A stretch of 44,746 bases of DNA from a virus (taxonomy: Duplodnaviria > Caudoviricetes): positions 1 through 44,746 of the IMG/VR virus record IMGVR_UViG_3300044297_000213, one strand, 5' to 3'. Position 1 is the stretch's first letter; every line of letters starts with the position of its first letter. Below the pieces are notes generated by a model. That model was not told the DNA's origin. It saw only the letters and a program-made list of their open reading frames with translations, and made no database searches. The position numbers and the translations under genes were made by a program. Of the stretch, positions 4,742 through 35,065 are shown in pieces.

Positions 4742-5158
4742 ATGGAGTTAAGTCAAATGAACGAAGCCCTCGGTGGAACATTTGTTCCGCAAGAAAAATC
4801 TTCAGATATTGAAAAACAAATTGGTGAACTATTCACACCAATTAATAAGATTCATCGAGATCCAATTAAAACCACAGAAGCTTTGCTTCATGAACGTGGC
4901 AAAACTCACGGAGATTTTTCTGTCCACGCGCAAATCACACAAGATCTCAAAAATATCATGAGATCTGCTTATAAAGTTACTCCAGCCTCTGACGTACCTA
5001 TTAATGCTTGGGCCGGATTGACTAAAACCCAAGCTGAATCGCTCGACATGATCGTGCATAAAATTGGACGTATCATTGCCGGCGATGCGGATTTCCGAGA
5101 TCATTGGGATGATATCGCTGGATATGCGAAGTTGTCGGCGGATCTGTGCTCTAAATGA
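4742..5158 (+). CDS. DUF6378-like phage protein
   Basis: ERGKTHGDF...KIGRI...DHWDDIAGY; start moved to ATG 4742 (AGGAG RBS). Confidence 0.75.
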   Translation: MELSQMNEALGGTFVPQEKSSDIEKQIGELFTPINKIHRDPIKTTEALLHERGKTHGDFSVHAQITQDLKNIMRSAYKVTPASDVPINAWAGLTKTQAESLDMIVHKIGRIIAGDADFRDHWDDIAGYAKLSADLCSK

Positions 5159-6473: not shown

Positions 6474-6710
6474 ATGGATACCGACACCATCCTCCAACGA
6501 TGGAACAATTACCGGGCAGGAGAAGCTATTACAAGTGTTAAGATTAAATCTGACATGATAGAAGTATCAAAATACGGTGCGACCATTTCATATAAAGGAA
6601 AAATTTCCAAAGGAAATAAATATGTTCGATATTGGCGCTTTGAATCTAAAAAAGGTTATTTTAGATTTATTGCAGATTATTGGGATCATCTCGTGGGAGT
6701 TGAGTCTTGA
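6474..6710 (+). CDS. Hypothetical protein
   Basis: AAGGA RBS; its stop overlaps the TTG start of the polymerase. Confidence 0.6.
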   Translation: MDTDTILQRWNNYRAGEAITSVKIKSDMIEVSKYGATISYKGKISKGNKYVRYWRFESKKGYFRFIADYWDHLVGVES

Positions 6711-8206: not shown

Positions 8207-9338
8207 CTTACATTCCCCTGAAATCTTCCGCCGTTGGACAGCAATAACAACTATAGCCGCGGCTTTAGAACAAAAAGTTTGGGTTAGAACTTCACGGCCA
8301 TTGTATCCTAATATCTATGCATTTATTGTCGGTCATCCAGGTGTAGGGAAAAGTCGTACTATGCGGGAAGGTCGAAGTTATATTCAAGAACTACCCGAGT
8401 TTCATCTAGCTCCGATCTCAATGACCTTTGCGAGTCTTGTAGATTCTCTAGTCCGGTCAAAACGAAATATCATCTGTCCACCGGACGATCCGCTAGAATA
8501 TAACTCAATGTATATCTGTGCCGATGAACTCGGCGCATTCATGTCTAAATACGATAATGAAATGATAGATGGTCTGTCTGCGTTTTATGACCCTGACCCA
8601 TACCAACAAGTCCGGAGGACTTCTGATCTTCGAGTACAAATTAAATCCCCACAACTTAATATTCTTTGCGGAACTACCCCACAAAACCTAACCGAACTCA
8701 TGCCTGAAAAAGCTTGGGGACAGGGGTTTACATCGCGGCTGATTATGGTGTTTTCTGATGAACGAATCATCGGCGATGATTTTGCTCCAGAAGAAGCTCG
8801 TCATTCAGATGAGCTTAAATTTGATATTGAACGGATTAACAATCTTCACGGGGAATTTAAAGTAACCGAAGATTATCGTACCGCAGTTAATATCTGGCGT
8901 AATAACGGCGAGCCACCTGTGCCAGATCATCCGAAGTTAATTCATTATGTCACACGTCGCCGGGCCCATTTATACAAACTGTCTATGATCGCTTCAATCG
9001 ATCGATCTGATTCACTTATCCTAACCAAAACCGATTTCGACACAGCAATGCGTTGGTTACTTGAAGCAGAGCTTACCATGCCGGAAATATTTAAAGCTGG
9101 CGCAGCTAATGCTGACGGCCAAGCGATGCAGGAGATTTTGCACTTTATTAAAATTTCAGATAAAGGCCAGGGTGTATCGGAGCAACGCATTTATCGCTTT
9201 GCGCGAGATCGTATCCCAATGCATTCAATTCTGCGTATAATTGAAATCTTAGAAAAATCCGGCCAAATCACTTTACGTGGAATTGACCGGAACACAAAGT
9301 TGCGTTGGTATTCTGCTAATTCCGGAGAACTACCTTGA
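8094..9338 (+). CDS. DUF3987/YfjI-like P-loop helicase
   Basis: YPNIYAFIVGHPGVGKS Walker A, ICADELG Walker B, GFTSRL arginine finger, C-terminal wHTH-like region. Confidence 0.8.
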   Translation: MMKTPTRSGSKTTQATTTGNPQRKLTSWIESFIDQTSNLHSPEIFRRWTAITTIAAALEQKVWVRTSRPLYPNIYAFIVGHPGVGKSRTMREGRSYIQELPEFHLAPISMTFASLVDSLVRSKRNIICPPDDPLEYNSMYICADELGAFMSKYDNEMIDGLSAFYDPDPYQQVRRTSDLRVQIKSPQLNILCGTTPQNLTELMPEKAWGQGFTSRLIMVFSDERIIGDDFAPEEARHSDELKFDIERINNLHGEFKVTEDYRTAVNIWRNNGEPPVPDHPKLIHYVTRRRAHLYKLSMIASIDRSDSLILTKTDFDTAMRWLLEAELTMPEIFKAGAANADGQAMQEILHFIKISDKGQGVSEQRIYRFARDRIPMHSILRIIEILEKSGQITLRGIDRNTKLRWYSANSGELP

Positions 9339-9597
9339 TATGGGTCAGAACCCAATCAAGAATACCGGTAAGGTATGTGGCGATGAGGACAAGAATTGCA
9401 AATATTCGGCGGCCCCATTTAACGAATATAAGCCCTTCTTGTATAATCTCAACGCTAGGTGCCATGATTTTGATCTTGTCCTCCATTCGGGCCCCGCGTT
9501 CCATGATAACATCGAGTTTTCCATTCATTTCCTCGACGGAGTTTCTTAGCTGTTCATGGTTATTTTCCAGAACAGCTATCCTTTCAGCGAGAGCCAT
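9316..9597 (-). CDS. Coiled-coil protein with C-terminal TM helix (lysis-cassette membrane protein)
   Basis: Start moved to ATG 9597; ERIAVLE coiled coil, then IFAILVLIATYLTGIL. Confidence 0.7.
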   Translation of the reverse strand: MALAERIAVLENNHEQLRNSVEEMNGKLDVIMERGARMEDKIKIMAPSVEIIQEGLIFVKWGRRIFAILVLIATYLTGILDWVLTHIKVVLRN

Positions 9598-9598
9598 T

Positions 9599-9952
9599 TC
9601 AATTCCTTTTGAATTGTTCCCAAATAGTCTGCCCAGTTTTGAATGAATCAAGCGCGGCTTTATAAGCTGAAACCACATCAGTTGGACGATTGTCACAGAT
9701 TCCCTGAACCAGACCAAATGCTTGCGCGCCAGCTTGAGAATATTTCTCTGGAACATGGCCTAGATTCACTGTTAGATCAAAGCCAATCTTTACAAGCGGC
9801 AAATTTGCGCAGAGTTTGTCAAGCGCATTGTTAGCAGACGCAACAGCCTTATTAACCGCAGCGTCTACCTTCTTGACCGCCGCTGGATTAAGTTCAGGCC
9901 GTGGCCCACACCCAGCTAAAATTAGGGGCAGTGCAATGATAATATATTTCAT
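9599..9952 (-). CDS. Lipoprotein, putative spanin-like lysis accessory
   Basis: MKYIIIALPLILAG-C lipobox; located in the lysis cassette. Confidence 0.75.
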   Translation of the reverse strand: MKYIIIALPLILAGCGPRPELNPAAVKKVDAAVNKAVASANNALDKLCANLPLVKIGFDLTVNLGHVPEKYSQAGAQAFGLVQGICDNRPTDVVSAYKAALDSFKTGQTIWEQFKRN

Positions 9953-10203
9953 GACTTGTTCTCCTTCGGACCGAGGTAAAACTGCTTTGCACCATCTGGT
10001 CCAGATTTACTCGGAATAGCACCAAGAACAGCATTAACTGCATTTCCTATTCCAAGCAATATCATCAATCCGGCGAGGATTGCTTTTACCTGATGTGGAG
10101 TAAATCCGAGATCAGTTAACTGTGATCCTGTTCCGGAAAGAAAAGCCAAGATTGCCAGTATAATTGACAACCATACTGAGTAACGCGGATCTATCGTCAT
10201 CAT
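9949..10203 (-). CDS. Putative holin (2 TM helices)
   Basis: 84 aa, two hydrophobic segments, charged C-terminus, adjacent to the endolysin. Confidence 0.7.
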   Translation of the reverse strand: MMTIDPRYSVWLSIILAILAFLSGTGSQLTDLGFTPHQVKAILAGLMILLGIGNAVNAVLGAIPSKSGPDGAKQFYLGPKENKS

Positions 10204-10664
10204 GCACTCCTCATTTTCATAGCCAAATCCTTACAAGCTTTTTCTCTGGCCAACCAGCCTTTACCAAAGAATTTAAAATTAGCCAGATGCCGATAAAACC
10301 CAAGGCGTTTTTTATCGAGTTCTAGAATTTGAAAATATGAAGTTGAATTTGAAATTTCTTTATACCAATTTAATGCCCGTCCCGGTCCGGAATTAACAGC
10401 AATATCGAACATCATTAAATCAACACCGGCCGGAAGATCATCACCATTAACAGTGTTCCAAAATTTTTTATGATAAATATTTTCTGCCGTTGCTTTAGTC
10501 ATCCCCATAACATCACTAATCGTTGCTCGACGCCCGAGTTCATGTGATAGCGTTGCAATGGTGATTCCCATATTCGTAGGCCCGCCCGGGTCCTTTGAAT
10601 GATTTGAATATCCACCCTCGTATTTAAGAGTGAAATCTAAACAGCGCTTGAAGTTCTCTTTCAT
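10200..10664 (-). CDS. Endolysin, glycoside hydrolase family 108
   Basis: EGGYSNHSKDPGGPTNMGIT, FDIAVNSG, FGKGW; start moved to ATG 10664. Confidence 0.92.
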   Translation of the reverse strand: MKENFKRCLDFTLKYEGGYSNHSKDPGGPTNMGITIATLSHELGRRATISDVMGMTKATAENIYHKKFWNTVNGDDLPAGVDLMMFDIAVNSGPGRALNWYKEISNSTSYFQILELDKKRLGFYRHLANFKFFGKGWLAREKACKDLAMKMRSA

Positions 10665-13600: not shown

Positions 13601-16435
13601 GTCGATAATTTTCTTTACCATCTGTTGTGCAGATAAATCGCCTTTTTGTTCATGGTAGGCTTTAAGCGCTTCGACCATTTCTTTACCGGAGCCAAACCCG
13701 AACATTTGTGCAACGGGCTCAACTGGGATTCCGTCGTTGGAATAATACCAACGTGGGAGCATGGATTTTTCTTCCGCTGAGAGATCACTCGCGCGAAGTG
13801 GTATACGCTTTCGACCAGTTTGTTTATCTTTATATTCTCCAGAACCAATAAACAAATCTGCCGCAACATCAGGGCGTTGCTTAATAGTTTCTTCAACCTC
13901 AGCTCGAGTTTCTTTTATTCGCTCATTCCATTCAGGTGTCAACTTTCGTTTTGCTTCACGTTCGGCGGATTTAGCCGAGGCTTCGATATCTTCACGATAA
14001 CGTTCCTTGAGCAATTCTTGAAGGCGTTTAAAAGACTTCACATCGAGCTTAATCGCACTTGCCTGAAGAGAATCAAGCTGTGCTTGGAGTTGGGAATAAT
14101 CAAACGACTTCGATTCATCCACACTCAAACGATATCCGCCACGATCCGCAAAACCAGCGGGCTCTCGTGCACCTACTTCACCAGATTCAATCTGCCTAAA
14201 GATTGTATTAAAATCTGGCTCTTTACCAAGAACAGATTTGATCTGTGCTTTTATCTCATTCCAAAGATCTTCAAGTTTCTGGAAAATTCTTCCGACAGGA
14301 CTATCCACACGATTTTCGCGGTTCTGAGCCCACTCACCATAAGCATCAGCAACTGATTCTTCAAGCTTATAATGATCTGAAAGATTTTCATATCGCTGAT
14401 GAATATTATACCGATTCAACCAGCCTTCTGAAACAGCCGCCCTTTGTAAAGTCCCCCATTCACTTTCGCTCAAAAATCCATAATTGCGTAAAACATGTAG
14501 ACCTTCATGTCGTGCTGTTCTTCCTGGATTAGGGCTAAAAAAGTTAACCAATACTTGTGGAGCACGTTCACGACTTGGAATAAATGTTCCAAGCGCTTCG
14601 CGACCACCGGATTGTATTCCATGGACGAGATATGATTCTGCTTTAGGCGCAATACGACCAAGGATATCAGAGATAATTTTATGTGCAGAGGCTTCTTCTT
14701 TAGTATAAAGTTCGCGCGGCTTCATTCCACCAGTTACTTCTGGATGAAAATTTTTAAGCACTGTTCCCGACATAATTCGATTAAAATTATTAAAACTAGC
14801 GGGATTTAATATTTCATCAAATTTAACTTTCGGAAATGCATGAGTTTCACCAGTTGTCCCAGCCCCTTCACGGGCACCTGTAACCCGATGACCCGTGATA
14901 TATTCATAATCAGGAAACTCAGCCTTAAGTTGGCGCATGAGATCACGGACAAGACTCGGGCCGAACGAATTAGCCCAATGCCCCGCAGCCCCGCCAATCA
15001 TCTCAATATGCAATGTTTTAGTCGCCGGATCAGGAACCAGAGTCAAATCCCCTACAACCCTCCCATTCTGATCTAAAAGTTGAAATTCATTATAATGCTC
15101 AAAGCCCTCAATTCCAGAACCTTTCTTAAGTGAGATCTTTCGATCACCCCAAGCAAACATTGGTTCAAGGCCATTAGCACGAATCTGTGCCAACGGCGAA
15201 TCAACAACTTCCTTCGGTGACGCAGCCTCGGCTGCTTCGCGCGCAGTTATTCCACCATCCCAAAGACGTGTGTCTTGACGCAAAACCTGCCGAACTTCTG
15301 GCGTAGAATATGTCAACCAGTCTTTAAGTGGTATGCGAATGTCTTCTCCAGTGTCAATCGCATTTCGGAGTTGATTTTCAAAATCAGGAATCCAGCCCAG
15401 AATACCATCGTTTGATGCCGGGAGCTTATCTTTATAAAGCGCCGCAATTGCATCACCGGAAATACTAATACTATCATTCCCAACTTGTTCCTCAACCGCA
15501 GCGCGAAACATCTCAGGTGCGCGGGCTCGCGTTGAAGAATTTTCAGCCGCAGCCAACGCGGCTTCAATACGATTTAAACCTTCCTCATTTGCACGAGTTT
15601 TAAATTCATCTATAAAAGGATCAATTCCACGCGGAGGCTCAAGTCCAGCGTCCGTCCAAGGTTTAGCCGCTCGTTTGGCGCGTTCAATTCTAGCAACAAA
15701 TGCTTGTGCTTGTGTAGCAGCATGAACTGTACCACCACCGCCGCCCATAAAATAATTTTCAACACCGCCTTCAATATCCCGCAATAGATTTGATGGAGCT
15801 TCTTGCCCAATAGCGGCGAATAAACCTTTAGCACCCCCTTGTAATCCACCTGTTACGCCACCAGCAAATCCACCGATGGCGCGCACACCGAGTTCAATTG
15901 GCATTCCAAGTGTTGCCCATGCAACAGCTGAGTATGGATTTCGTTGACCGAACTCAGTATTAATCGCCCACGAACCCGGGATTGAAGGACCAACACCTTT
16001 AACAACGCCCTCAATTGCACCTTTAACAGGCGGCATAAGCACGTCGGTTAAAAGTTTATATTGACTCTGTGCTTCAAGTTCAACCGCTTTGACATAATTA
16101 TCACCATATAAACGGCCGAGTGTAGACATTACATTGGACAACGCACCATAATCGTCATTTGAAACAACGTCGGCGAGTGGATTGTTGTTAATATATGCCT
16201 GAAGCACAGGACTGTTTCTAACAATCCCGGCGGTGAGGTCGGTTTTATGTTCACGGTCTATATTATCAAGATCAGCATAAACAAGATTAGGCGGCAACCC
16301 TGTTGATTGAGCCAGTTGTAGAGCCCTTGCCCCACGCTCAGGATTCTCATCAATTGATCCGGCGGCTTTAACAACAGGACCATTCACCGCATTGGCGACA
16401 ATTGATTGAATATCATCAGGCGAAAGAGAGTCCAT
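10664..16435 (-). CDS. Large internal virion/ejection protein (T7 gp16-like position; polyvalent-type, HExxH motif)
   Basis: 1923 aa, helical; last of three core genes; RHEGLH...EESVADAY. Confidence 0.75.
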   Translation of the reverse strand: MDSLSPDDIQSIVANAVNGPVVKAAGSIDENPERGARALQLAQSTGLPPNLVYADLDNIDREHKTDLTAGIVRNSPVLQAYINNNPLADVVSNDDYGALSNVMSTLGRLYGDNYVKAVELEAQSQYKLLTDVLMPPVKGAIEGVVKGVGPSIPGSWAINTEFGQRNPYSAVAWATLGMPIELGVRAIGGFAGGVTGGLQGGAKGLFAAIGQEAPSNLLRDIEGGVENYFMGGGGGTVHAATQAQAFVARIERAKRAAKPWTDAGLEPPRGIDPFIDEFKTRANEEGLNRIEAALAAAENSSTRARAPEMFRAAVEEQVGNDSISISGDAIAALYKDKLPASNDGILGWIPDFENQLRNAIDTGEDIRIPLKDWLTYSTPEVRQVLRQDTRLWDGGITAREAAEAASPKEVVDSPLAQIRANGLEPMFAWGDRKISLKKGSGIEGFEHYNEFQLLDQNGRVVGDLTLVPDPATKTLHIEMIGGAAGHWANSFGPSLVRDLMRQLKAEFPDYEYITGHRVTGAREGAGTTGETHAFPKVKFDEILNPASFNNFNRIMSGTVLKNFHPEVTGGMKPRELYTKEEASAHKIISDILGRIAPKAESYLVHGIQSGGREALGTFIPSRERAPQVLVNFFSPNPGRTARHEGLHVLRNYGFLSESEWGTLQRAAVSEGWLNRYNIHQRYENLSDHYKLEESVADAYGEWAQNRENRVDSPVGRIFQKLEDLWNEIKAQIKSVLGKEPDFNTIFRQIESGEVGAREPAGFADRGGYRLSVDESKSFDYSQLQAQLDSLQASAIKLDVKSFKRLQELLKERYREDIEASAKSAEREAKRKLTPEWNERIKETRAEVEETIKQRPDVAADLFIGSGEYKDKQTGRKRIPLRASDLSAEEKSMLPRWYYSNDGIPVEPVAQMFGFGSGKEMVEALKAYHEQKGDLSAQQMVKKIIDMKTAELMEARYGKLAENIATEAHDIAFSENAINLLSEEYTNAALLAKQTPVDLADIKAEAKRIFDSQTASGVNYSKLVSLVEKHASEAERALIADKPEEAVISMGRRLLTSIQAAEARKLEKEIKQLDRFLRTHRRRVVEGEAPEYTNYIHQAMMKVGAKVNRTFEDLKLQMEGTQQKDFKTFVENKQAQGHIIDIWDALTDPAWTKPLDQLTVQELRWFKDSVKVLEHLGRDELKIDLLGEKMDRAVLIDTLVNQLEHRDPIKYTPEGERVSFIPGMAVIRSAKAAHLQLETVFNRFAKFDSKGEWNKVIYNLIDAANARDALKRSYANKIRDVFEALEDKNFDRVIPNKIWKQPGTSYDFSISRGNMLMIMLNSGTKQNREKMAGGYGVTVPQMMNWLNEHATKSDWAFAEGMWGVMREFKTQVDIMYRGMTGGVAPETVQGLNFYSKHGPVKGGYWPIIEHSVFKAESGELRGPGDLFDQGYINAYVSNGYTKSRTKDIRPLSMSLDEFPARFDQMIHDLAMRPAVTEARKIFFDNKIFNGIQRQYGNEYAEMLRPYLIDVANSSLRDQEAIKGWRRWSEFIRQNTISTLIAFNPGTVMKHGPTALVMSMHEVGVGNFLRETVKRAIKDDDIAKAYDIVGGQNYNYAVRTLFEMGDEIASSNGEFALKHSLELQRRHPNWQETLYGTMENQMFGKGFQFWRHKVMEWGATPVSFADNLSAVPTWLAKYREQREAGYNHEEAVIEGDRAVRRAHGSTATTNRTSVQRNANPWLTSVYNFFSDIFNRMVETGWKAGETYDLFKEGDFKDATKTIPMLTAAFFAYAVFPAVNEELVSPLPHGKDEDLSWTVAKATGKYLSAGVIGLRDLVSGLSYGRDPQFGLLGSMAQNATNWLRDLRKDNPVDERNAGKLVQDMFAVMGTVSGMAPLPIGKAARFSINTNLGYEDPEGPWSWVTGLRYGTLKKHSHTWDDWIGGDH

Positions 16436-19179: not shown

Positions 19180-19595
19180 TTTTTAGCCCCAATTATGAAT
19201 GGCATAGTCCTATCGGAAGTTGGCAAAAAGACTGCGCCAAGCCATGTTAACCAGCGTTTAGACTCATTATTAACACAAACCCCGCAAATAGTGGAATATT
19301 GACTTAGAAGATTATTAATAACTTTTATCGACCACCGGGCAACAATATAAGGATGCTTTTCTGCTATTTTAGTATGATAAAACCAAATATAAGCTTCATC
19401 ACAAAGTAAAGCCAATCGCTTAGCACCAATGAATCCAAGAAGTCTATCATCACCAAATGCGGCGATTAAAAATTCTGACTGTATTGCAGCATCATATAAT
19501 GTTATTGCTTCAAGATCTGTTAATTCAGGCATATCTCGATGCAAAAGTAAAGACTTAAATTGTAGCCGATTGATATTATATATCTCCACTTTCAT
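19176..19595 (-). CDS. GNAT-fold virion assembly protein (T7 gp13-like)
   Basis: Position after the nozzle; N..SKRWLTWLGA.F motif. Confidence 0.7.
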   Translation of the reverse strand: MKVEIYNINRLQFKSLLLHRDMPELTDLEAITLYDAAIQSEFLIAAFGDDRLLGFIGAKRLALLCDEAYIWFYHTKIAEKHPYIVARWSIKVINNLLSQYSTICGVCVNNESKRWLTWLGAVFLPTSDRTMPFIIGAKK

Positions 19596-22405
19596 TTTGT
19601 ATCTCCGATTGTGTACGACGGAAATACGCCTAGGATTGTTGCTGGATATGGATTGGATTGGCGGATATAATACTGACCCGGGATAGTGTAAGCAGGTGAG
19701 AGAATTGTTTTCGCATCACCTGTAACAAGATTTGTTACAACCTGACTCGCTTGCCCTGTGAGCATAGATGACACGTTATTTAAAACCAAATCTTTCATTT
19801 GGACTAATTGACCACTATCTGGCCCGATGGAAAGCCCGAGAGTTTCAAAAACGCGTACGTCAACAGAGTTAATCTTTTTAACTTTACCTTGAACTGTTGG
19901 CTCACCAAGGTCAAGAGCTAGAGTTTGTAAATCACATGTATACCCTATACCAACAGATACCTTCGACGCGGGTGCTGGTAATGTAAATATACCAGAGGTA
20001 GGCATAACAAATGGTGTAATCGGAAGTCCGTCGGCAAGTCCAGTTACAGTTTGTCCGGCAAGATGTTCGCCACCTATAAATGTAGATGCGGGTGTGCCCG
20101 AATAACGAAGACCTGCATCAACACAGAATGCATCAGCAACAAGACCTGTTGTTGTACGTTCAGAAAGCCTTTCGATATATTTTACTGTATTACCATTTAT
20201 AACCCGTTCAATAACAAAATATGTCGCGTCAACATTTGTATTTTGATAGGGTTCTGAGGCAACAGCAATTGATTTAAAATTGCCGTTGTTTGTATAATGC
20301 TGAGCCCACCCAACAAATTCTTGTTCTTTCAAGAATGTTAGCGAAAGGAGCTTGCCATCATCACGAACTGACCAAGCAATATAATATGGTTGCTGTGCCC
20401 AAGCCCATTCTACAATTGTTTTATTTGCAAATAAATGCGAAGACATTACTGAAATGTCAGTGCCGGTGAATACATTATAGTAAATATTGAATGCCAGATC
20501 TCGAACGCCGGAACCTTTGGATTGAACGTAAAGAATATCATAATTCGCCACAATAGGAGGAACATCATTTGCGCCGATACCGGATTGCATGCTTGCAACA
20601 ATACTCGTAGGAGTTACAGCCGAACCTGATGATCCGCCATTGATGAGCCATGACGCATTGTCTGTAAGAACAAGCATTCCCGCGGTGGATGAAGCAATTG
20701 ATTTAATAGAATTCAATACACCAGAAACAAGTGTGGCTGTAATGGCATCATCACTTCGTACAGGCGCTGATACATCAAAATTAAACGGACTTCCCGGCCG
20801 CGACATATACAAAGTTTCTGGCGCTCCGGCAGGACCCGCGAGAACAAGCCTCTGTTGGAAGAAACTCGGAACAGTCGGATTGCCATTCGAAGTTGGCGCA
20901 AGCACTGCTGTTGCAGTTGCAAGACCCGCCGAAAAAGTAACTCCGGGTGCCGCAGCATAACCTGAACCAGAGGTAAGAACATTAACTTGACGCACACCCC
21001 ATGTTGCGTTAGCTGTAGCACCGGTACCACCGCCTGTAGTTGTAATTTGAGCCAACGGATTTGGCGGGGTGGCACCGGAAGTTATTGAGCCAAGATTAAT
21101 CGCGTGCCACGCAGTAACTGCACCAGCCGCGACGGCATCTACATACATTGTAAGAGAATTTGGAAAATCAATAAGGTCACCAACAGCATAACCCGCACCA
21201 CCGGCAGCAATACCAGGAGTTGCATTAACACCAAGTTGAGCTATACCTACAGCCGGAATAGTAGCAACACCAACGAAATTAACCGTTGGTACCGCAAGAT
21301 AGGCACCTACTCCTGTCACGGTGACATAAGCAACACCAGAACCAGCGAATGGATTGCGGGATATAGGTGGTGTCTGGGTGAAATCTGGGGAGATATTAGA
21401 ATCTATAAATTCACTGCCTTTGACAGTTCCCACAAAACCGTATTGAACCCCATAAGGTACAACACCGAAATAGGATACATTTGATTCATAGATATTATAT
21501 CCAACAGCATTTGCGTTGGGATTCCATGCGATTTTAATCGATCCAGCTGTGGTGCGGATATCAGAAGTATCAAGAAGTGTTGCTACATCAGAAAGAGACG
21601 ATTCTTGGCCGTTTGAATCAATGGAGGTTACACCATATGAATAATTAACACTACCTGATTTTAGTGTTGTGGTTATGGCAAGACCAGTTGGCGCGGAGAC
21701 TGTTGTACCAATTGAAATAGGTACAAGTGTCCAATTTGTTGCTGTGATAAGAGTTAATACATATGGAGAATGATTCGGATGACAGATTATCATTTGGTTT
21801 ACTTTAGAAGTAAACTTAAGCAAACGAAGATCATCAGCTGAAGTATAAGGCGAAGAAATTTCATAAATCCGTGAGGCAGTTCCGCCTGCGGTATAAGCAC
21901 TGAATGTTGTTGAATTTAAATTAGTTCCATCAAGATTGTGCAGTGTTACAAGATTACCAACAACATTGGCTACAATGAAATAACGGCCATTTATCTGGGT
22001 CATACCCCCAACGCCAGAAACATAAATCCATTTGCCAACAGTCAACGTGGTACCTACAATTGTAAGCACGCATGGATTAGCTTGAGTCGCACCGGAAATT
22101 ACTTCAGTGTTAGAAGTGATTACGCCGCCCCGATAAATAAATCGTATATAACCATTACCGCACTCTAAAACATAACCGATGTTAAATGCGGCTTGAAATG
22201 GAATAAGCCGCACGGGATTCGCGGAATCTTTACATTGGATTATATATTGAGTACCCGGACGACTTGAAGCACCACCGCGATAATCAACGAAGAAATTACG
22301 TAGAAGCGCCGCACCAGATTTATACTTAGCAATATCCACACGTGCATAAAGGTTCGGCGACCATTCGCCGGAATTAAATGAAGCCTGCGCGTAGATTTCA
22401 CTCAT
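19592..22405 (-). CDS. Tail tubular protein B / nozzle
   Basis: QASFNSGEWSP...RPGT start, FFQQRL, EQEFVGW, QSNPYPATIL end; start moved to ATG 22405. Confidence 0.9.
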   Translation of the reverse strand: MSEIYAQASFNSGEWSPNLYARVDIAKYKSGAALLRNFFVDYRGGASSRPGTQYIIQCKDSANPVRLIPFQAAFNIGYVLECGNGYIRFIYRGGVITSNTEVISGATQANPCVLTIVGTTLTVGKWIYVSGVGGMTQINGRYFIVANVVGNLVTLHNLDGTNLNSTTFSAYTAGGTASRIYEISSPYTSADDLRLLKFTSKVNQMIICHPNHSPYVLTLITATNWTLVPISIGTTVSAPTGLAITTTLKSGSVNYSYGVTSIDSNGQESSLSDVATLLDTSDIRTTAGSIKIAWNPNANAVGYNIYESNVSYFGVVPYGVQYGFVGTVKGSEFIDSNISPDFTQTPPISRNPFAGSGVAYVTVTGVGAYLAVPTVNFVGVATIPAVGIAQLGVNATPGIAAGGAGYAVGDLIDFPNSLTMYVDAVAAGAVTAWHAINLGSITSGATPPNPLAQITTTGGGTGATANATWGVRQVNVLTSGSGYAAAPGVTFSAGLATATAVLAPTSNGNPTVPSFFQQRLVLAGPAGAPETLYMSRPGSPFNFDVSAPVRSDDAITATLVSGVLNSIKSIASSTAGMLVLTDNASWLINGGSSGSAVTPTSIVASMQSGIGANDVPPIVANYDILYVQSKGSGVRDLAFNIYYNVFTGTDISVMSSHLFANKTIVEWAWAQQPYYIAWSVRDDGKLLSLTFLKEQEFVGWAQHYTNNGNFKSIAVASEPYQNTNVDATYFVIERVINGNTVKYIERLSERTTTGLVADAFCVDAGLRYSGTPASTFIGGEHLAGQTVTGLADGLPITPFVMPTSGIFTLPAPASKVSVGIGYTCDLQTLALDLGEPTVQGKVKKINSVDVRVFETLGLSIGPDSGQLVQMKDLVLNNVSSMLTGQASQVVTNLVTGDAKTILSPAYTIPGQYYIRQSNPYPATILGVFPSYTIGDTK

Positions 22406-22604
22406 CAGAGACTTCCAGATTCTTAAGTTTAGCATTTATTACAATAGTATCAATTACATTATCCCAATCATCCTTTGGTATCTTAGATAAAGCTTTTTGC
22501 AGTACAATTTTAATCAAAGCCAAAATAGATGGTAATCCATCTTGGGCATACAAAACTGTAATTGATTCCAATGCAGTTCTAAGATTATCTGTCTCTTGAG
22601 ACAT
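22398..22604 (-). CDS. Hypothetical protein
   Basis: 68 aa between the tail genes. Confidence 0.5.
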   Translation of the reverse strand: MSQETDNLRTALESITVLYAQDGLPSILALIKIVLQKALSKIPKDDWDNVIDTIVINAKLKNLEVSDE

Positions 22605-22607
22605 AGA

Positions 22608-23702
22608 TCACCCAAATACTGGCCACATATTGCCCCAATCAAATGATGATCCGGGACCGGCGAATGTTCCACCTGCGTTATATCCACGAATACGAATCCA
22701 ATCAGGCGTTAGATCATTGATAGTAAGTCCTTCACTAGCATCCTGGGCTCGGGCTTCAATAATCGCCATATTTGCAAGTTGTATTGCGTCATTGGCAATT
22801 TTCTTATCCCCAGTCAAAGCCATACAAACTGTGGCCCCAAGGATTTTAGTGTAAGCATCCTGAAAAAGATCATCAGTTATATTCATATCCGTAACGTCAC
22901 GGACATAAACAGCCGTGGCCTGCGGCTGATCCGTTAGTATAACTCTCTGCGGAGTTGGCGCTAATTGTGTTATACTAAATGCCGCGCCAGTTCCAGAACC
23001 TGACGTAGAACCTTGTTGAATAGACCCGGCCTGAATATTAAAATATGAGCCAGATTGAATTGGAACTGAATAAGGTACAGACTCTACAAGATCAGCGGAA
23101 GTAATTGCACCGAATGCGCCAATTGCATTTACTTTAACTTGAGCAGGAGCCCCGATTGGAGCTTGGTCTGTTGGACCCAATGCAAGAGTTATGATTTCAT
23201 CAACTACATAACCAGTTCCGGGCGCATCAATTGAAACTGTAGTAGCCGGGCGAAATGTATCAGTTTGCACCGCGTACTTAATAGGAGCCCCACTCATAAC
23301 CGCAGCAGGGCCGAAACTTACAGCCACAGGAGAAATCGGAATTATGAAATCATTACTAACCTGCGCGACTGGGATTATCCAACACATAAGAAGACAATCA
23401 ACAGGATATTGATATTCATAAAGCCATGGCGGGGTGGGCAATCCCGGAACCCAACGTGTAAACGATGCCGAGCCATTTTCAGGCGTGCCCGGCATCGAAG
23501 TAATATAAGCCAAATTCATCGTTTTCATTGCACAATCCCACGGCGCCATTCGAAGCAACCGCCGCCGGACATTGTCCTTAGCAATGTTGATTTGAATGGC
23601 TTCGTTGGTAGTATTGTTGTCAAGTTCAGGCCCAGTTACAGTAGTCCGAGTTCCGACAACTTGCAGCGCGCGATTGGCAATGTCAACGAAGGTGGTCATC
23701 AC
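22608..23702 (-). CDS. Tail tubular protein A / adaptor with inserted beta domain
   Basis: DIANRAL...LLRMAPWDCA...YQYPVDCL...DDLF...ALTG...PDWIRIRG. Confidence 0.85.
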   Translation of the reverse strand: MMTTFVDIANRALQVVGTRTTVTGPELDNNTTNEAIQINIAKDNVRRRLLRMAPWDCAMKTMNLAYITSMPGTPENGSASFTRWVPGLPTPPWLYEYQYPVDCLLMCWIIPVAQVSNDFIIPISPVAVSFGPAAVMSGAPIKYAVQTDTFRPATTVSIDAPGTGYVVDEIITLALGPTDQAPIGAPAQVKVNAIGAFGAITSADLVESVPYSVPIQSGSYFNIQAGSIQQGSTSGSGTGAAFSITQLAPTPQRVILTDQPQATAVYVRDVTDMNITDDLFQDAYTKILGATVCMALTGDKKIANDAIQLANMAIIEARAQDASEGLTINDLTPDWIRIRGYNAGGTFAGPGSSFDWGNMWPVFG

Positions 23703-24056: not shown

Positions 24057-24449
24057 CTAGCTATTAGACTCTATCACCGTCAAAGCATTATTAGCCCCGG
24101 CAGCAACATCTGCAAACGCTTGCCATCCACCTTGAACTTCCCCTGTAAGTTCAATTGGAAGGTTATTAGCTTTTAGTTTTATACACCCACCCCGCGCCGC
24201 AAGACTCGGAACTAACGCTACATTTGAAGGCGTCGTTGGCGCCGTACCGAGTACATTTTGCACAAAAAGCGGAGCGATAAAAAGATCCTGTGTTCCAGGG
24301 TTGAAGAACACAATTTTCTGTCTCTGAGGATTTGGTTGTGCTACAATCACTAAACCAAATTCAGAGATATTATTATACCCATAAATCTTCCCGCCGGAAG
24401 CGGAGGCATTAGCAAGAACACTTCCGGGACTTCCGACGAACATACCCAT
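24057..24449 (-). CDS. Putative virion beta-sandwich protein (head spike/fibre base-like)
   Basis: NPQRQKIVFFNPG; late operon. Confidence 0.55.
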   Translation of the reverse strand: MGMFVGSPGSVLANASASGGKIYGYNNISEFGLVIVAQPNPQRQKIVFFNPGTQDLFIAPLFVQNVLGTAPTTPSNVALVPSLAARGGCIKLKANNLPIELTGEVQGGWQAFADVAAGANNALTVIESNS

Positions 24450-24937: not shown

Positions 24938-24956
24938 GATACGCTCCTATATTTTG

Positions 24957-24976
24957 GGTGGGACCTAAGCCCCACC
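24957..24976 (-). promoter_or_regulatory. Intergenic hairpin, core GGTGGGGCTTAGGTCCCACC (copy 2)
   Basis: Exact 20-nt match to 4702-4721, each in the sense of local transcription. Confidence 0.75.
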
Positions 24977-24985
24977 CGAAGTTAT

Positions 24986-25615
24986 TTACTGCTCAATCCA
25001 CTGAATATCAGCGTGAATCAATCCCGTCGTGATCGAAGTCGCGTTGAGATTAATACAAAGCTGCTGCGCAGTTCCACGAAGAATTGCTTCCTGATCAAAA
25101 GACAATCCCGAAGAAAAGAACCATTCAATGGGCCTAATTGAAGTACCCGCCGAAGTCACTGGCAACGTGGTCCAAGCTGACCTAAGATAAGTCGGGGACG
25201 TATCATTGATCGTGGGATTCGCTGAGTAACTAATCAGCGTGGCCGTGGCGGTTGGGTTAGTGCTATCGTTCTTTGCGATAGTGTTTGCCCAGTTCGCCGT
25301 AGTGGTTGCAGCTGTTCCACCGGTGTCCACAGAAGCCCGCCGCAGCAACGTAAACGGCGCGGTAACAAGGGTGGCAGCAGTGCCAGTAATGCTGATACGC
25401 TTGACATAAACCGTCTTAGAAGACGATCCAGCGATACAAGCGATATCAGTTGCCGAAGCTGCCGGAGGCAAGTTCAGCGCCACAGCAGAATACGTCACCT
25501 GTCGAAGGGTTGCTGTCACCAACCCAACTTGAGGAACGACGTTAACCTGCGCGATTGCAATAGTCGCAATCAGAGCCGCAACCATACCGAGAATATAAGG
25601 ACGAAGTTTAGTCAT
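24986..25615 (-). CDS. Signal-peptide-bearing beta-rich protein in the capsid operon (putative head decoration)
   Basis: True start ATG 25615 (TAAGGAGG RBS): MTKLRPYILGMVAALIATIAIA/Q; Thr/Ala-rich; 2 Cys. Confidence 0.75.
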   Translation of the reverse strand: MTKLRPYILGMVAALIATIAIAQVNVVPQVGLVTATLRQVTYSAVALNLPPAASATDIACIAGSSSKTVYVKRISITGTAATLVTAPFTLLRRASVDTGGTAATTTANWANTIAKNDSTNPTATATLISYSANPTINDTSPTYLRSAWTTLPVTSAGTSIRPIEWFFSSGLSFDQEAILRGTAQQLCINLNATSITTGLIHADIQWIEQ

Positions 25616-30451: not shown

Positions 30452-31957
30452 TCACGCCGCCATTCTTTCAGGTGAGTAAGGATCGTATTCGGAGATAACA
30501 TTCGGCGTATGCGGATGATCCCCACCCGCCGAAGCATTACGAGAAAGTTGGTGAGCGAAGGTTAAGACCAACGCATCTATATCATCGAGTGAAATTCCAT
30601 TTCCATCTTCGTCGACAAGGTCTTCTTTACGTTCAAGGATGATTTCATCTTTTTTATTGAAAGTATATTTAATTGCCAACATCTGCCGCCGAAGTTCGGG
30701 ATCGTTGGGGATGGCACCGGTACGAAGCCATGCGCGGCAAGCACCGTACATGGCGGCGCGGTTATTTGCGTATTTCTCTCCGGTGTTGCCCCAGATAGTG
30801 TTGTATACTACATCTTTGCCTCCAAATTGAACTTCATAACAAAAGATCCGCTTTTGACGAATATTATCTACAACACCACCACCCACGCCGCCACCATCAA
30901 CCATGATCCCATCGGGCCGCATGGTTTCATTAAATACGGCGACTTCATCTGCGAGAGCTACAGTAGATAGACCGTTATACCGTCTTCGTTCTATTGTACG
31001 TGCGTCACGACCTTTACGGGGGAAAATGACTGATGCATTCATACCAAACCGAGCAACGTCAACACCAACGGCAAGCGGGTCGGAAATATCAACATAAACT
31101 TCTCGCGTCATTGCAGCATCAATATCTGCGGCGACGAAAAATTCCATCAGACCCTTACGAGGGAATTGACCGAGTACACGGACGCGAACGAAATCGGAAT
31201 CGTCTCCGTAGGCTGTGACCCAATTATTAAGACGGCTTTTGTTTGTAATTCGAACTGTACGAGAGTCGATTTGATTATGTTGCCATTGGTCGGCAAATTT
31301 GCCACCGTCGAAACATTCACGGAAGCGTCCTGTATTTCTGGTTGGGTTGCCAAATGCGAGCCAGATGATTTCGGTGTCAGAGTCTGTAAGCGCACCTTCA
31401 GCGGTCTCCCAAATGATATCTGGAATCTCAGAACCTTCATCAAACACAAGAAGAATTCGTTTACCTTGGTTATGGAGACCCGCGAACGCCGCCGGATTTT
31501 TTTCAGACCATGGAATCATATCGATTCGCCAAGTACGTTCGCGTTCAGGATCTTTAGAGAATAAACCTGTTGCGGTCAGATTAAAATGTTCTCGGCCAAA
31601 CCAACACAGATTAAACCATTTACCAAGCTCAGCCCATGTTTTAGTTTTAAGCTGTGTTTCAGTATTAGCTGTGACAACTCCGCGAGTATCCGGGAAAGTG
31701 CAGAAAGCCCAGAGAATTAAATGTGCAACAGTCGCGGATTTGCCAATACCATGGCCGGACGCAGTTGCGATTTGAATTGCAGTGTTAGTATCAATGAGTC
31801 CATCGCGAATTTGATTCATGAGCTTTACAGCCCATTCCTCAGGGCCGGAAAACTTTTCAAGCACAGTGCCTGATTGACCCCATGGAAAAGCACCCATTGT
31901 GAATGCCAATGGGTCATTTTTAACAGATGCAAGCCATGAAAACAATTCAATGGTCAT
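30452..31957 (-). CDS. terL: Terminase large subunit
   Basis: SGHGIGKS Walker A, VFDEGS Walker B, GNPTR, GVDVARFG nuclease motif. Confidence 0.95.
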   Translation of the reverse strand: MTIELFSWLASVKNDPLAFTMGAFPWGQSGTVLEKFSGPEEWAVKLMNQIRDGLIDTNTAIQIATASGHGIGKSATVAHLILWAFCTFPDTRGVVTANTETQLKTKTWAELGKWFNLCWFGREHFNLTATGLFSKDPERERTWRIDMIPWSEKNPAAFAGLHNQGKRILLVFDEGSEIPDIIWETAEGALTDSDTEIIWLAFGNPTRNTGRFRECFDGGKFADQWQHNQIDSRTVRITNKSRLNNWVTAYGDDSDFVRVRVLGQFPRKGLMEFFVAADIDAAMTREVYVDISDPLAVGVDVARFGMNASVIFPRKGRDARTIERRRYNGLSTVALADEVAVFNETMRPDGIMVDGGGVGGGVVDNIRQKRIFCYEVQFGGKDVVYNTIWGNTGEKYANNRAAMYGACRAWLRTGAIPNDPELRRQMLAIKYTFNKKDEIILERKEDLVDEDGNGISLDDIDALVLTFAHQLSRNASAGGDHPHTPNVISEYDPYSPERMAA

Positions 31958-32241
31958 TGCGCAGCCTGCCTTGCAGAATTAATGATACTTTCTGTAATCG
32001 GGCCAAAAGTTCGCGCTGCGCGCATACAATCGCCCCTTAGACATGAACGCTCTATCTCAGCATTGATCAGGCCTATCATAAGCTGTGCCTGCTCGGTAGT
32101 CAACGGTACAGACAAGGAAATCGCAGCAGCTTGCCTCGCCGCACGTGAAATTGGCGTTTCTGGTATATTAGGAGCAGGAGCTGGTTCTTCCTGAGCTAGC
32201 GCGGTAGTAGCACAGAACAGAAATGCAATAAGTGTGCGCAC
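31954..32241 (-). CDS. Signal-peptide-bearing small helical protein (putative fibre chaperone)
   Basis: True start GTG 32241 (GAGGAG RBS): MRTLIAFLFCATTALA/Q; LTTEQAQLMIGLI helix; CLRGDC. Confidence 0.7.
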   Translation of the reverse strand: MRTLIAFLFCATTALAQEEPAPAPNIPETPISRAARQAAAISLSVPLTTEQAQLMIGLINAEIERSCLRGDCMRAARTFGPITESIINSARQAAQ

Positions 32242-32251
32242 GAAAATCTCC

Positions 32252-33796
32252 TCAGTAAGCCGGAATGTATCGAACGGTGCCGGAGGCATTCTTCACAACA
32301 AACCATTCTTGAATGGTTGTATGAGAACCAGTCGGACCAAGACTTGTCATAGTGGTGGCCACGGCACCATTGGCCGTCCATTGCGCGGAGGAATTAAATT
32401 GCATCGCATTATTTAAATCCCACGTCAAAACTGCGTCGGATAGACCGAACCCGTTTGTGTCGGTACTTATGCGATTAAACAATCCAAGAAGTCCCGCACC
32501 TTGTGAGTTTTGTCTAATAAAGCCAACACCACCTTTTGGAACGGTAGTTTCGCCACCGGTTGTCACATCAAATCCGATTGACGCTAAAGGGCTGCCGCCA
32601 TTATCATTACGCGCAATGAAATTATAAGCAGTTCCGTTTATGGATGCATAAGACTCAACTATATTACTTGGCGTGGTTATACGAAAGCGTTGATTAGTTG
32701 CAATGTTCATAAATGCAAGTACAGAAGCCGAAGCTCCGTTATAACCGCGAAAATACAAAGGCACAGAAGCAACATTAGCTGCGGCGCCACTCGTAGCACC
32801 AAGAAACATACCTGTGGTTACACTGTTATCTGAGATTACAAAACCATTATCCCATTTAACATTAGTTCCAAGCGGGCTGACGATGGCTGCTGTCACGGTG
32901 CCCGACGGTTTGACTGTAGATCCGCCAATGAAAACAAGACCATAACCATTACCTGTCGGAGTTGCATTCGAATGATTTTTCACAAAATCCATATCGATTT
33001 CAATACCATAAAGAGTATCAAAATCATAACCTTGACCATCGGCTGCAACAGCAAGGCCTTTTATATTTCTTGTTACAGTGTTTAAACCCCAAAGATTTCC
33101 TGATGTATTTCTCGAAAGTGACGCGAGCGAAAAAACGCCAACAGAAGTGCCGCCTGCAACACTTGGTGCGTCCATTATATAAGCTGAAACTGCTGTGTGA
33201 GGCCATGGTGATTGAGTTTGACCTACTGGAACAGCAACAGCAGAGGACAATCCACCCATCACACCCAGCGGTATGTATGAATCAGAAGGATAATTACCGA
33301 CATTCAAATAAGCAGGAAATGTGGGGATTGATCCAAATGAACTAGGCCATGAGGCATTAATCGCAAGACTTGTGCCGGTGAGATTGGCCGAAGTTGTACC
33401 TGTAACTGTCAATGGATACCAAGTTTGAAGCGTTGCAGAATATTGATACGTTAACGCCTGATTTGTTGATGAAGTGCAACTTGTAACGCTCGCGGCAGAA
33501 ACAGCATCAGAGCCGTTTGACGTTACAGAAAGTGTTCCGACCGCGCCACCTGGACAGGAAATGGAAATTAGTTGTCCATCAAATGAAGGAAATGGAAGTT
33601 TTATGTTCCAAGTAGTAATTGCACCTTGTGCGAGAACATTAATATTGTTCGGAGAAACTGCATTACGAACGACGGTTGTGACCGTCGTCCCCGGCTGAAC
33701 ATTAATAACACCCGTTGCATAAATTGGCGGGTTCAAGAAACCTTGAGCAAAAGCCGAAGTAGAAACAAAAAGTCCGGTGAGAAATGATTTAATCAT
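32252..33796 (-). CDS. Fibre/receptor-binding-like protein with signal peptide
   Basis: Likely start ATG 33796 (GAGG RBS): MIKSFLTGLFVSTSAFA/Q; G/S/T/N-rich beta sequence; fibre-type C-terminus WFVVKNASGTVRYIPAY. Confidence 0.75.
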   Translation of the reverse strand: MIKSFLTGLFVSTSAFAQGFLNPPIYATGVINVQPGTTVTTVVRNAVSPNNINVLAQGAITTWNIKLPFPSFDGQLISISCPGGAVGTLSVTSNGSDAVSAASVTSCTSSTNQALTYQYSATLQTWYPLTVTGTTSANLTGTSLAINASWPSSFGSIPTFPAYLNVGNYPSDSYIPLGVMGGLSSAVAVPVGQTQSPWPHTAVSAYIMDAPSVAGGTSVGVFSLASLSRNTSGNLWGLNTVTRNIKGLAVAADGQGYDFDTLYGIEIDMDFVKNHSNATPTGNGYGLVFIGGSTVKPSGTVTAAIVSPLGTNVKWDNGFVISDNSVTTGMFLGATSGAAANVASVPLYFRGYNGASASVLAFMNIATNQRFRITTPSNIVESYASINGTAYNFIARNDNGGSPLASIGFDVTTGGETTVPKGGVGFIRQNSQGAGLLGLFNRISTDTNGFGLSDAVLTWDLNNAMQFNSSAQWTANGAVATTMTSLGPTGSHTTIQEWFVVKNASGTVRYIPAY

Positions 33797-33804
33797 AATT
33801 AACC

Positions 33805-34434
33805 TCATGGAGTTTCGTCTTCGGCAACAAGCGCAAGGTTAGTCCATGCATCGGCGGCGCCACCAGTGAAGCCGGTGATGTTGGCAAATCCGATTTTATA
33901 TCCCGCGCCAAGTGCAAGGTCAGGCATGGTGATAATAACATTGGTGCTATTTGCCGTTGGCGCGAATGGGTGCCCCGCATATGGTTGATTACTCAAACTC
34001 GCAGTTTGAGTGAAGATAAAAATTCCCTGCCAAACCACACCGTTGGAAGAATCCCAAATATAAGTGCTAATTCGCCTATTGGCAACGGTGGCGTCAGTGG
34101 TGAATAGTCCATAAAGAGCCCGCGGCCTGTAGACTTTACCAGCCGGGATTTGATATCGAGCGATGCCGTTAACTCCGCCCGGGGATGCTTCGAAAGAGGC
34201 TTGGGTTACCACTATGGGACGTGAAGCCCGCACGGCGAGAAGACTGCCTGAGGAATCACATTGAACCAACGCAAATTGGCCGGTAGTAATACTAGGCGCG
34301 GTGGAGTTATATGCGCAAGCAAGACCAGAGATCGGCGGGGTTGTGGTGGTCTGAGCCCGAAGATCGGCGAAGATGCCGAAGGTCATGATTAGACCAGCTA
34401 GTAAAGTCAGAATGTAAAATTGAAATCTGTTCAT
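33805..34434 (-). CDS. Signal-peptide-bearing putative virion appendage protein
   Basis: MNRFQFYILTLLAGLIMTFGIFADLRA/Q; CAYNSTAPSITTGQFALVQCDSSG segment followed by a beta domain. Confidence 0.7.
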   Translation of the reverse strand: MNRFQFYILTLLAGLIMTFGIFADLRAQTTTTPPISGLACAYNSTAPSITTGQFALVQCDSSGSLLAVRASRPIVVTQASFEASPGGVNGIARYQIPAGKVYRPRALYGLFTTDATVANRRISTYIWDSSNGVVWQGIFIFTQTASLSNQPYAGHPFAPTANSTNVIITMPDLALGAGYKIGFANITGFTGGAADAWTNLALVAEDETP

Positions 34435-34451
34435 GATCTTATCCTTAAACT

Positions 34452-34487
34452 GCCCGGGCTGGCACCAAGCCTAATACCAGCCCGGGC
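34452..34487 (-). promoter_or_regulatory. Strong GC-rich intergenic hairpin
   Basis: GCCCGGGCTGG/CCAGCCCGGGC perfect 11-bp IR, extended by G-U pairs only in the minus-strand RNA. Confidence 0.7.
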
Positions 34488-34519
34488 GCATCAGACGCGG
34501 CCCATGTTCCACGCCCGAA

Positions 34520-35065
34520 TTAATCCTCAAGTGGTTTGGCGTCGATAACACTACGCGAGCGCGCAATTGCTGCTTCGAGACTAGCGGCGAAGTTTAGATT
34601 CACATTCTGCGTCGCGGTCTTACGATGATAACCAACTCGATCGGCGGAAGAATCAGCGATTGCAAGAAGACGGTTTATTGGGAGGAGTTCCTCCCTGTCG
34701 TCTGCCTCATCCAGATGATCGTTTATCTGCCGCCATGCTTTTCGCCCTGCGGCACGGATATCTTCAAAGAAATTATCCCGGCCTTCACGCCAGGATTCAT
34801 GGATTTCTTCGCGGTATTTGGCGATAAGCTCTTGCATCGCCGGGGCCCGGGATAGCATAGAGACGCGTTCTTTAGTGTATCCAGTCGCCTCGGCGACTTG
34901 AATATTAGTCATGCCTTCGGCGAGAAGCATTGCCACGTTGTGATGTGAATTGCGGATGATCTTCATCCGCAAATTCGGCGCCGCGGCAGGAGAATTTAAA
35001 AACGATGAATCCTGCGCCGTCATAGGGCGGATTGACTTAATCTCGATCTTCTCAATCGGTCTCAC
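34520..35065 (-). CDS. Putative terminase small subunit (N-terminal HTH)
   Basis: LLAEGMTNIQVAEATGYTKERVS HTH, DRVGY, NVNLNF..LEAA; early in the late operon. Confidence 0.65.
   Translation of the reverse strand: MRPIEKIEIKSIRPMTAQDSSFLNSPAAAPNLRMKIIRNSHHNVAMLLAEGMTNIQVAEATGYTKERVSMLSRAPAMQELIAKYREEIHESWREGRDNFFEDIRAAGRKAWRQINDHLDEADDREELLPINRLLAIADSSADRVGYHRKTATQNVNLNFAASLEAAIARSRSVIDAKPLED

Follow-up and report, generated by a model that had tools for sequence, protein, structure and literature searches.

Tailed phages are taken to complete their particles in the reducing cytoplasm before the host cell is lysed. Virion proteins with Sec signal peptides (leaders) are found in the Inoviridae, where pIII and pVIII carry them and the periplasm is where pIII receives the disulfides of its receptor-binding domains; both proteins are membrane-anchored and are assembled during extrusion, without lysis. 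In this study I analysed the tailed-phage record IMGVR_UViG_3300044297_000213 from IMG/VR, a linear virus record of 44,746 nucleotides that is about 92% complete and was found in freshwater metagenomes (the window, in the following, is this whole record), with respect to four late genes, here called A, B, C and D, whose products start with predicted Sec leaders. Judged from the genes, it is very probable that leader-bearing proteins of this kind are exported and folded with disulfides, and I consider it fairly probable, with real room for doubt, that A, B and D, and C with them, follow a whole route in which they are exported, disulfide-bonded and joined to the particle at lysis. A first-pass annotation of this DNA knew of no described pathway of this kind for tailed phages and literature searches likewise found none: Sec-exported fibres or spikes of tailed phages were not described in the full-text literature searched, which mostly does not cover subscription papers, and exported virion proteins are not mentioned in the accessible parts of the papers on Circe (PMC13001222), LME-1 (PMC12407071) and Xanthomonas phage PBR31, nor in those of PMC3426561 and PMC5567305.

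The first-pass annotation had described three consecutive genes that begin with signal peptides, followed by a glutamine at the first mature position (Gln+1). These are gene A (33805..34434, minus strand, 209 amino acids (aa)), gene B (32252..33796, minus strand, 514 aa) and gene C (31954..32241, minus strand, 95 aa), and a heuristic of my own for the n-, h- and c-regions recovers all three leaders. The starts hold as they had been set, with AAGGA upstream of ATG 34434 and GAGGAG at GTG 32241; gene B has GAGGT five nucleotides before ATG 33796, the alternative ATG 33808 being without a ribosome-binding site. Two cysteines (Cys) are present in each mature chain, as had been stated (C40/C59 in A, C81/C107 in B and C67/C72 in C), and gene C has an additional one within its leader. 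The three-gene leader set is thus real, but it is not a self-contained module: a fourth leader gene, D (24986..25615, minus strand, 209 aa; leader 1-22), had been missed directly after the Bbp16 cement gene, and relatives use three variable slots. The heuristic, which took the place of SignalP, was written after reading the first-pass finding and rewards Gln+1. Its score is at least 5 in four of the 69 minus-strand open reading frames (ORFs) of at least 60 aa, namely A, B, C and D, and in a shuffle control their own scores were reached 5, 0, 0 and 0 times per 2000, respectively. When the bonus for Gln+1 is removed, this residue is still found in 63 of the 89 leader proteins of the family described below. 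By the same heuristic, the leaders have the basic n-region, the hydrophobic h-region and the small residues at -3/-1 of Sec export and signal peptidase I cleavage, and no lipobox, with the exceptions of a Leu at -3 in gene A and a short h-region in gene B. The leader of gene B is also weakly hydrophobic, yet a leader is called in 48 of 51 homologues of its N-terminal domain (N-domain). A glutamine after the cleavage site, cyclised to pyroglutamate, is known for signal peptidase I substrates of Bacteroidetes, according to the accessible part of one study (PMC5837995), but this likeness does not identify the host here. An artefact of assembly or reading frame was considered and rejected, since contigs from three other runs (X8, X9 and X10) span the greater part of the stretch, free of indels and in the same frames, and homologues are abundant.

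Relatives of the window phage comprise 64 loci fetched by terminase and 23 fetched by gene D. The idea that A to D form one fixed cassette was rejected, because the gap between the TerS and TerL genes is short in 56 of the 61 loci with a TerS gene. It exceeds 1 kb in the other five (two of them nearly identical), and leader genes are present in all five wide gaps (3/3, 2/2, 2/2, 1/3 and 2/2). Most other relatives have one to about seven leader genes, located after the cement gene and after a conserved gene of 130 aa. In 89 leader proteins, dereplicated at 70%, the number of Cys in the mature chain is even in 79, odd in 4 and zero in 6. The 165 core virion and packaging proteins, without a single leader call, show a different distribution (35 even, 55 odd, 75 zero); among Cys-containing proteins the difference is 79/83 vs. 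35/90 even (Fisher p 2e-16), to be read with a D family that is over-sampled by design, related proteins that are not independent and 290 other ORFs omitted from the count, some of which are leader genes with mis-called starts. As the body and tip of gene B are common to leaderless fibres, a paired control for Cys parity was possible, comprising 118 homologues of at least 300 aa that start with Met (35 were dropped). The 81 leader-bearing homologues have an even number in 75 cases, an odd number in 3 and none in 3, compared with 11, 12 and 6 of the 29 leaderless ones (p 3.6e-7), and 4, 3 and 1 of the eight with an ambiguous leader. Within the N-domain of gene B, both Cys are present in 47 of 50 alignment rows, neither in 3 and a single one in none. 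Even numbers, pairs that are retained or lost jointly and a link with the leader are what disulfides would leave behind, and with the conserved leaders they strongly support the predicted export and oxidative folding that the first-pass annotation had proposed. As far as gene sequences tell, the leader trait is real and widespread throughout the family. Because of the predicted export signals, the paired Cys and the lack of a recognisable ordinary tail fibre, folding outside the cytoplasm is likely.

Gene B is a mosaic that consists of a leader (1-17), an N-domain (18-135, with Cys81/Cys107), a body (about 135-440) and a conserved tip (455-514), and it ends in a polar fibre-tip motif. A search over 1.84 billion representatives gave 621 matches at E up to 0.001, and 153 homologues were examined (the best rows and those of an earlier search). 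They share with gene B the N-domain in 51 cases (48 with a leader call), the body in 37 (17), the tip in 61 (27) and both body and tip in 4 (1). Leaderless carriers of body or tip include proteins with the T7-type anchor phrog_1640 (P0023, P0155), DUF2793 (P0144) or an S74 chaperone (P0054), and most of the 72 proteins scanned have no family match. Of 46 proteins scanned for the N-domain, 7 have it joined to beta-helix, BNR or endosialidase-N cargo. The homology of body and tip to annotated tail fibres supports the earlier reading of gene B as a fibre, and it is likely a receptor-binding one. A structural model of the N-domain (pLDDT 84.8) has a T4 gp9/gp10-like fold (XD), with the best matches to 6o38 (presumably the secreted protease CpaA; Z 9.7), the capsid spike of Pa223 (9.6), CBA120 TSP4 (9.5) and the KP1 baseplate chain 9f4a (9.1); for the latter three, 96-102 residues are aligned with a root-mean-square deviation of 2.8-4.9. 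The Solidus tailspike (Z 8.0) and StcE (Z 6.5) match more weakly, and in Foldseek T4 gp9 and the T4 baseplate appear too, though with weak E-values. The modelled fold fits a virion appendage. No match to gene B was found in plasmids, and pattern scans gave no locus for the whole gene or for its N-domain. One relative (G001, C1:348-566, minus strand) has a second, partial copy of the N-domain (E 1.9e-9) near the cement-gene slot, and stand-alone distant versions of it are located near the same slot in four loci (L047, L033, L012 and L037). Two further proteins, P0095 and P0059, have a leader-like N-terminus before a domain with which the leaderless fibre P0094 begins (P0095 vs. P0094: 31% over 71 aa, E 5e-9; no BLAST match for P0059); this may be one and the same anchor, in one case with a leader and in the other without.

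In gene A, the leader (1-27) is followed by a 40-aa module (28-67) that holds Cys40 and Cys59, and then by a beta-rich domain. The module is always found after a leader, in proteins that are 65-439 aa long and unrelated in their C-terminal parts, and in two loci (L047 and L020) both Cys are relocated together. The spike of Pa223 is anchored by about 40 N-terminal residues, as stated in the accessible part of a preprint (bioRxiv 10.1101/2025.06.11.659172), a precedent for the module in size only. The C-terminal domain has one weak homologue, leaderless and free of Cys (P0012, E 6.5e-3). Going by its sequence, gene A is likely a spike or head-fibre-type protein; in the Atlas it matches unnamed viral clusters only (XepA, at 0.76, offers a weak lead), and a pattern scan of metagenomes gave no locus for it. 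Homology between A and D is not detectable (hhalign probability 0.1). Gene D is conserved beside the cement gene, and the Ala-Gln junction, Cys60 and Cys187 are invariant in 18 of 18 sequences of its family. Its model is a jelly roll (pLDDT 82.5), for which the fold matches (Z up to 8.7) are tied between viral capsids, turrets, cement proteins, TNF/C1q and carbohydrate-binding modules; as such matches are generic, the fold does not name a function, and D is likely a capsid spike or decoration. Gene C has a leader (1-16), a Pro-rich linker and a body with Cys67/Cys72 that is probably helical. It has no homologue and no Pfam, PHROG or Atlas match, and the fibre chaperone that the first-pass annotation saw in it is unsupported, a guess from position: small leader genes do follow leader fibres in L037 and L067, but C and the L067 gene are weakly alike (38% over 26 residues). 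None of A, B, C and D has a family match in Pfam or PHROGs, and alignments A1, A3 and A4 gave no sequence match in the PDB.

The first-pass annotation let the exported proteins join particles when lysis mixes the compartments. Joining is backed indirectly, by the lack of another fibre gene, by a proteomics annotation in Cellulophaga phage phi10:1 and by population variants, and for this phage I infer it. The T7-type anchor phrog_1640 was found neither in the window nor in five of five relatives that are 97-100% complete (three with terminal repeats), while the same model did detect gp18 of Burkholderia phage BcepC6B. No unassigned leaderless late ORF of more than 162 aa is left in the window. 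No fibre-sized gene follows the ejection protein (1923 aa in the window), after which the endolysin gene comes directly. Gene B itself lacks the canonical leaderless N-terminal anchor of T7 type and has a leader and an XD-like domain. In phi10:1, GenBank notes mark gp091-gp094 as annotated by tandem mass spectrometry proteomics, and leader calls with Gln+1 are obtained for 4/4 of them and for none of eight other genes tested from the structural region, including portal and capsid. Population variants are 13/13 synonymous in core genes, 12/12 synonymous in codons 22-59 of gene A, including both Cys codons, with one change at residue 151, and 3/3 non-synonymous in gene B, all in the body. The best reading would then be as follows. 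Late transcription would be followed by Sec export of A, B, C and D into the periplasm, the leaders would be cleaved before the glutamine, which becomes the N-terminus of the mature chain, a host periplasmic oxidase would make the disulfides, and the proteins would accumulate in the periplasm; the exported fibre would form trimers. Opening of the inner membrane by the holin would bring particles and appendages together before the outer membrane is broken by the spanins, and docking would take place via the post-leader modules (A 28-67, B 18-135) onto leaderless parts built in the cytoplasm, with the capsid or Bbp16 as putative sites for D and A, and the 130-aa protein, the adaptor or the nozzle for B.

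Several observations weigh against this attachment. The window is linear and has a completeness of about 92%, and the anchor negative is limited, since the phrog_1640 model misses the tailspike of PBR31 and other anchor types would escape. Leader-bearing genes are not always the sole fibres, as L092, L055 and L069 have leaderless fibre-like genes beside them, and both kinds occur together also in BcepC6B and probably in PBR31. Insertions in the adaptor and nozzle might bind receptors themselves. The fold of the N-domain is no proof of docking, because a secreted bacterial protein (6o38) ties for its top match (StcE matches as well) and because the matching domain of Pa223 is a distal knob, not an anchor, in the accessible part of the same preprint (bioRxiv 10.1101/2025.06.11.659172). 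The phi10:1 support is a GenBank note on particle preparations of an unrelated siphovirus, in which co-purification is possible. Of the population variants, the 12 of gene A form one linked block, and the three changes in gene B are few and conservative. Finally, no homologues of A, B or D were found in the cultured phages searched, and the family is known here from genes alone.

Alternatively, the proteins could be exported and disulfide-bonded but act on the envelope of the infected cell, either by binding or masking host surface glycans, which would exclude superinfection or prevent re-adsorption of progeny, or as adhesins like the MAT fibres of Bdellovibrio. The layout of the latter, a signal peptide, a beta-rich domain, a phage-type fibre and disulfides (PMC10769870, accessible part), would suit this explanation, as would the occurrence of the N-domain fold in secreted bacterial proteins and the presence of leader-bearing and leaderless fibres together in L092. 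I nevertheless think it unlikely, as the genes belong to an operon for late morphogenesis, where their slots adjoin cement and tail genes, A, B and D have neither a lipobox nor a C-terminal membrane anchor, a scan of 27 mostly early ORFs gave no integrase, a search of 702 bacterial genomes did not recover the N-domain (a positive control worked), and the phage would be left without a recognisable fibre. A periplasmic stockpile could also be freed at lysis as soluble helpers that bind or cut glycans and remove matrix or capsule in the way of progeny, without a fixed place on the particle; leader proteins of relatives with GDSL esterase, pectate-lyase-like and BNR domains are in line with this, and so is the number of leader genes per locus, which varies from 1 to about 7. 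With no enzyme family match for A, B, C or D, a small jelly roll in D that is kept beside the cement gene, and short N-terminal modules that are reused on unrelated cargo in the manner of virion attachment peptides, such helpers seem quite improbable. That the N-termini are uncleaved anchor or assembly helices of proteins folded in the cytoplasm like other fibres is to my mind very improbable. The leaders do rest on heuristic calls, not on SignalP or experiment, that of B is short and weakly hydrophobic, the c-region of A contains Asp and Arg, and in D the leaders are conserved almost to the degree of the mature chains (mean identity 0.36 vs. 0.42). Against uncleaved helices stand the small-residue motif at -3/-1 and the invariant Ala-Gln in the D family, a Cys parity that is confined to proteins with a leader, and the existence of leaderless homologues of the same domains.

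With respect to its setting, the window phage is a podophage of BPP-1/epsilon15 type, in which profile scans found a PF12236 portal, a PF20911 capsid and Bbp16 cement, and also T7-type adaptor, nozzle and ejection proteins. The late operon occupies the minus strand between 35.4 and 9.3 kb, with terminase, portal, scaffold, capsid, cement, adaptor, nozzle, ejection proteins and GH108 endolysin. The closest cultured terminases and capsids are epsilon15/phiV10-like (42-55% identity; TerL relatives at 42-45%), and capsid relatives are found in four bins of metagenome-assembled genomes from unrelated taxa and, at 67%, in Ralstonia condita. A promoter scan was at chance level (8 found vs. 9.0 expected), and no RNA holder is listed. 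TerL (30452..31957, minus strand, phrog_2) overlaps with its start the stop of gene C, and TerS is assigned by position to a helix-turn-helix (HTH) gene (34520..35065, minus strand) with PHROG HTH matches, which in most relatives directly precedes TerL. Between the TerS gene and gene A lies a 16-pair RNA hairpin (34452..34487, minus strand), with a second one at 34491-34518; over a stretch of 101 nucleotides they reach -50.9 kcal/mol (z -5.98), a U tract is absent, and both are possible RNA processing or stability sites. Gene D, too, is followed by a hairpin, shorter and GC-rich, at about 24955-24978.

The conserved, leaderless 130-aa gene (24057..24449, minus strand) has no family match in Pfam and PHROG scans and is followed in relatives by a leader-bearing fibre; its product is a candidate for a docking part made in the cytoplasm. 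Five leader fibres after this gene (L005:18151-20013, L066:6938-8401, L067:11496-13346, L072:12277-14283 and L086:1396-3138) begin, as judged by eye, with a Cys-stapled motif rich in Thr and Asn, the two Cys about 11 residues apart, and BcepC6B gp19 has a Thr/Asn-rich fibre motif without Cys. Further candidates, either as docking sites or as an alternative receptor-binding surface, are the leaderless adaptor (363 aa, 22608-23699, phrog_394) and nozzle (937 aa, 19592-22405, phrog_376), which together span 19592..23699 on the minus strand. The matches to phrog_394 (190 positions) and phrog_376 (712 positions) are each split in two stretches flanking an insertion; these insertions are Gly/Thr-rich and roughly 150-250 aa relative to the PHROG profiles, and in relatives the lengths are conserved. 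The ejection-type protein of 1923 aa (10664-16435) has an LPD22 domain at its N-terminus. The lysis cassette (9316..10664, minus strand) consists of the GH108 endolysin, a holin-like gene and a lipobox spanin-like gene, the holin and spanin being labelled from sequence features alone; in one complete relative a leader-bearing gene of 163 aa with two Cys is located within this cassette (L099:9642, G003). A DNA polymerase (phrog_17) is distributed over two ORFs of the window (5155-6255 and 6707-8206), with two small ORFs of 67 and 78 aa between them.

Among the relatives, eight loci on seven contigs have, within their arrays of leader genes, a membrane gene resembling an O-antigen ligase, leaderless and about 355 aa long (L047:9083-10165, with homologues in L030, L033, L036, L048, L059/L085 and L060). 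Pfam Wzy_C is found below the cut-off in 2 of 5 scanned (E about 1e-3), and neither the window nor cultured phages carry the gene. Periplasmic glycosylation of exported proteins is a possible role, and a ligase-like enzyme that faces the periplasm would agree with a late programme that has a periplasmic branch. One may tentatively generalise, with slightly more doubt than trust, that in a large family of lytic tailed phages all of the host-recognition apparatus (fibres, capsid spikes and a helper) is made in the periplasm, using the signal peptidase and disulfide catalysts of the host and, in some members, a phage-encoded glycan transferase of this O-antigen-ligase-like type, and that lysis is the last assembly step, the particle being infectious only after the two compartments have mixed. 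If true, assembly would span two compartments, premature or abortive lysis would release non-infectious particles, and the Sec and Dsb pathways would be host factors of the phage. Fibres could then take up, from the bacterial secretome, lectin and enzyme domains that depend on disulfides, and leader-bearing fibre proteins would require periplasmic expression for folding. With annotation tools that read a signal peptide as non-structural, the receptor-binding proteins of many phages from soil and freshwater would be overlooked. For a feature of fibre- and spike-like genes that is still unexplained, attachment at lysis is the best reading, and it is unproven; if it holds, it would be new in kind, and the idea is testable in cultured phages.

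In comparison with known systems, the likeness to inovirus pIII is one of routing only, as its defining features, the C-terminal membrane anchor and assembly by extrusion, are not found here: the window phage has a terminase, a portal, a T7-type tail and a lysis cassette, and gene B is without a membrane anchor. The MAT fibres of Bdellovibrio likewise have a signal peptide, then a beta-rich domain of about 130 aa, a mosaic phage-type fibre and disulfides (PMC10769870, accessible part), but they are chromosomal bacterial cell-surface adhesins whereas the present genes belong to a phage late operon, and the likeness is one of architecture. Closer in setting are gp091-gp094 of phi10:1 (NC_021802), late fibre or structural genes with a Sec-type leader and Gln+1, on whose leaders the record does not remark; unlike the window phage, phi10:1 is an unrelated siphovirus of Bacteroidetes, its proteins have few Cys (0-2), and no homology to A-D was found. 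Leader-like N-termini and Cys are present also in BcepC6B gp19 and PBR31 gp35, annotated as tail fibre or structural, of which the latter is not mentioned in the accessible part of the PBR31 paper. BcepC6B shares the BPP-1-type head and tail with the window phage, but BcepC6B and PBR31 each have a tailspike or fibre in a gene of its own (gp18, which has a T7-type anchor, and gp34, respectively), and their leader-like proteins have neither Gln+1 nor homology to A-D. The canonical podophage fibres and tailspikes (T7 gp17-type, or with DUF2793 anchors) differ in being leaderless, made in the cytoplasm and without Cys parity, while their body and tip modules are common with gene B, just as the XD domains of CBA120 TSP4 and the Pa223 spike have their fold in common with its N-domain.

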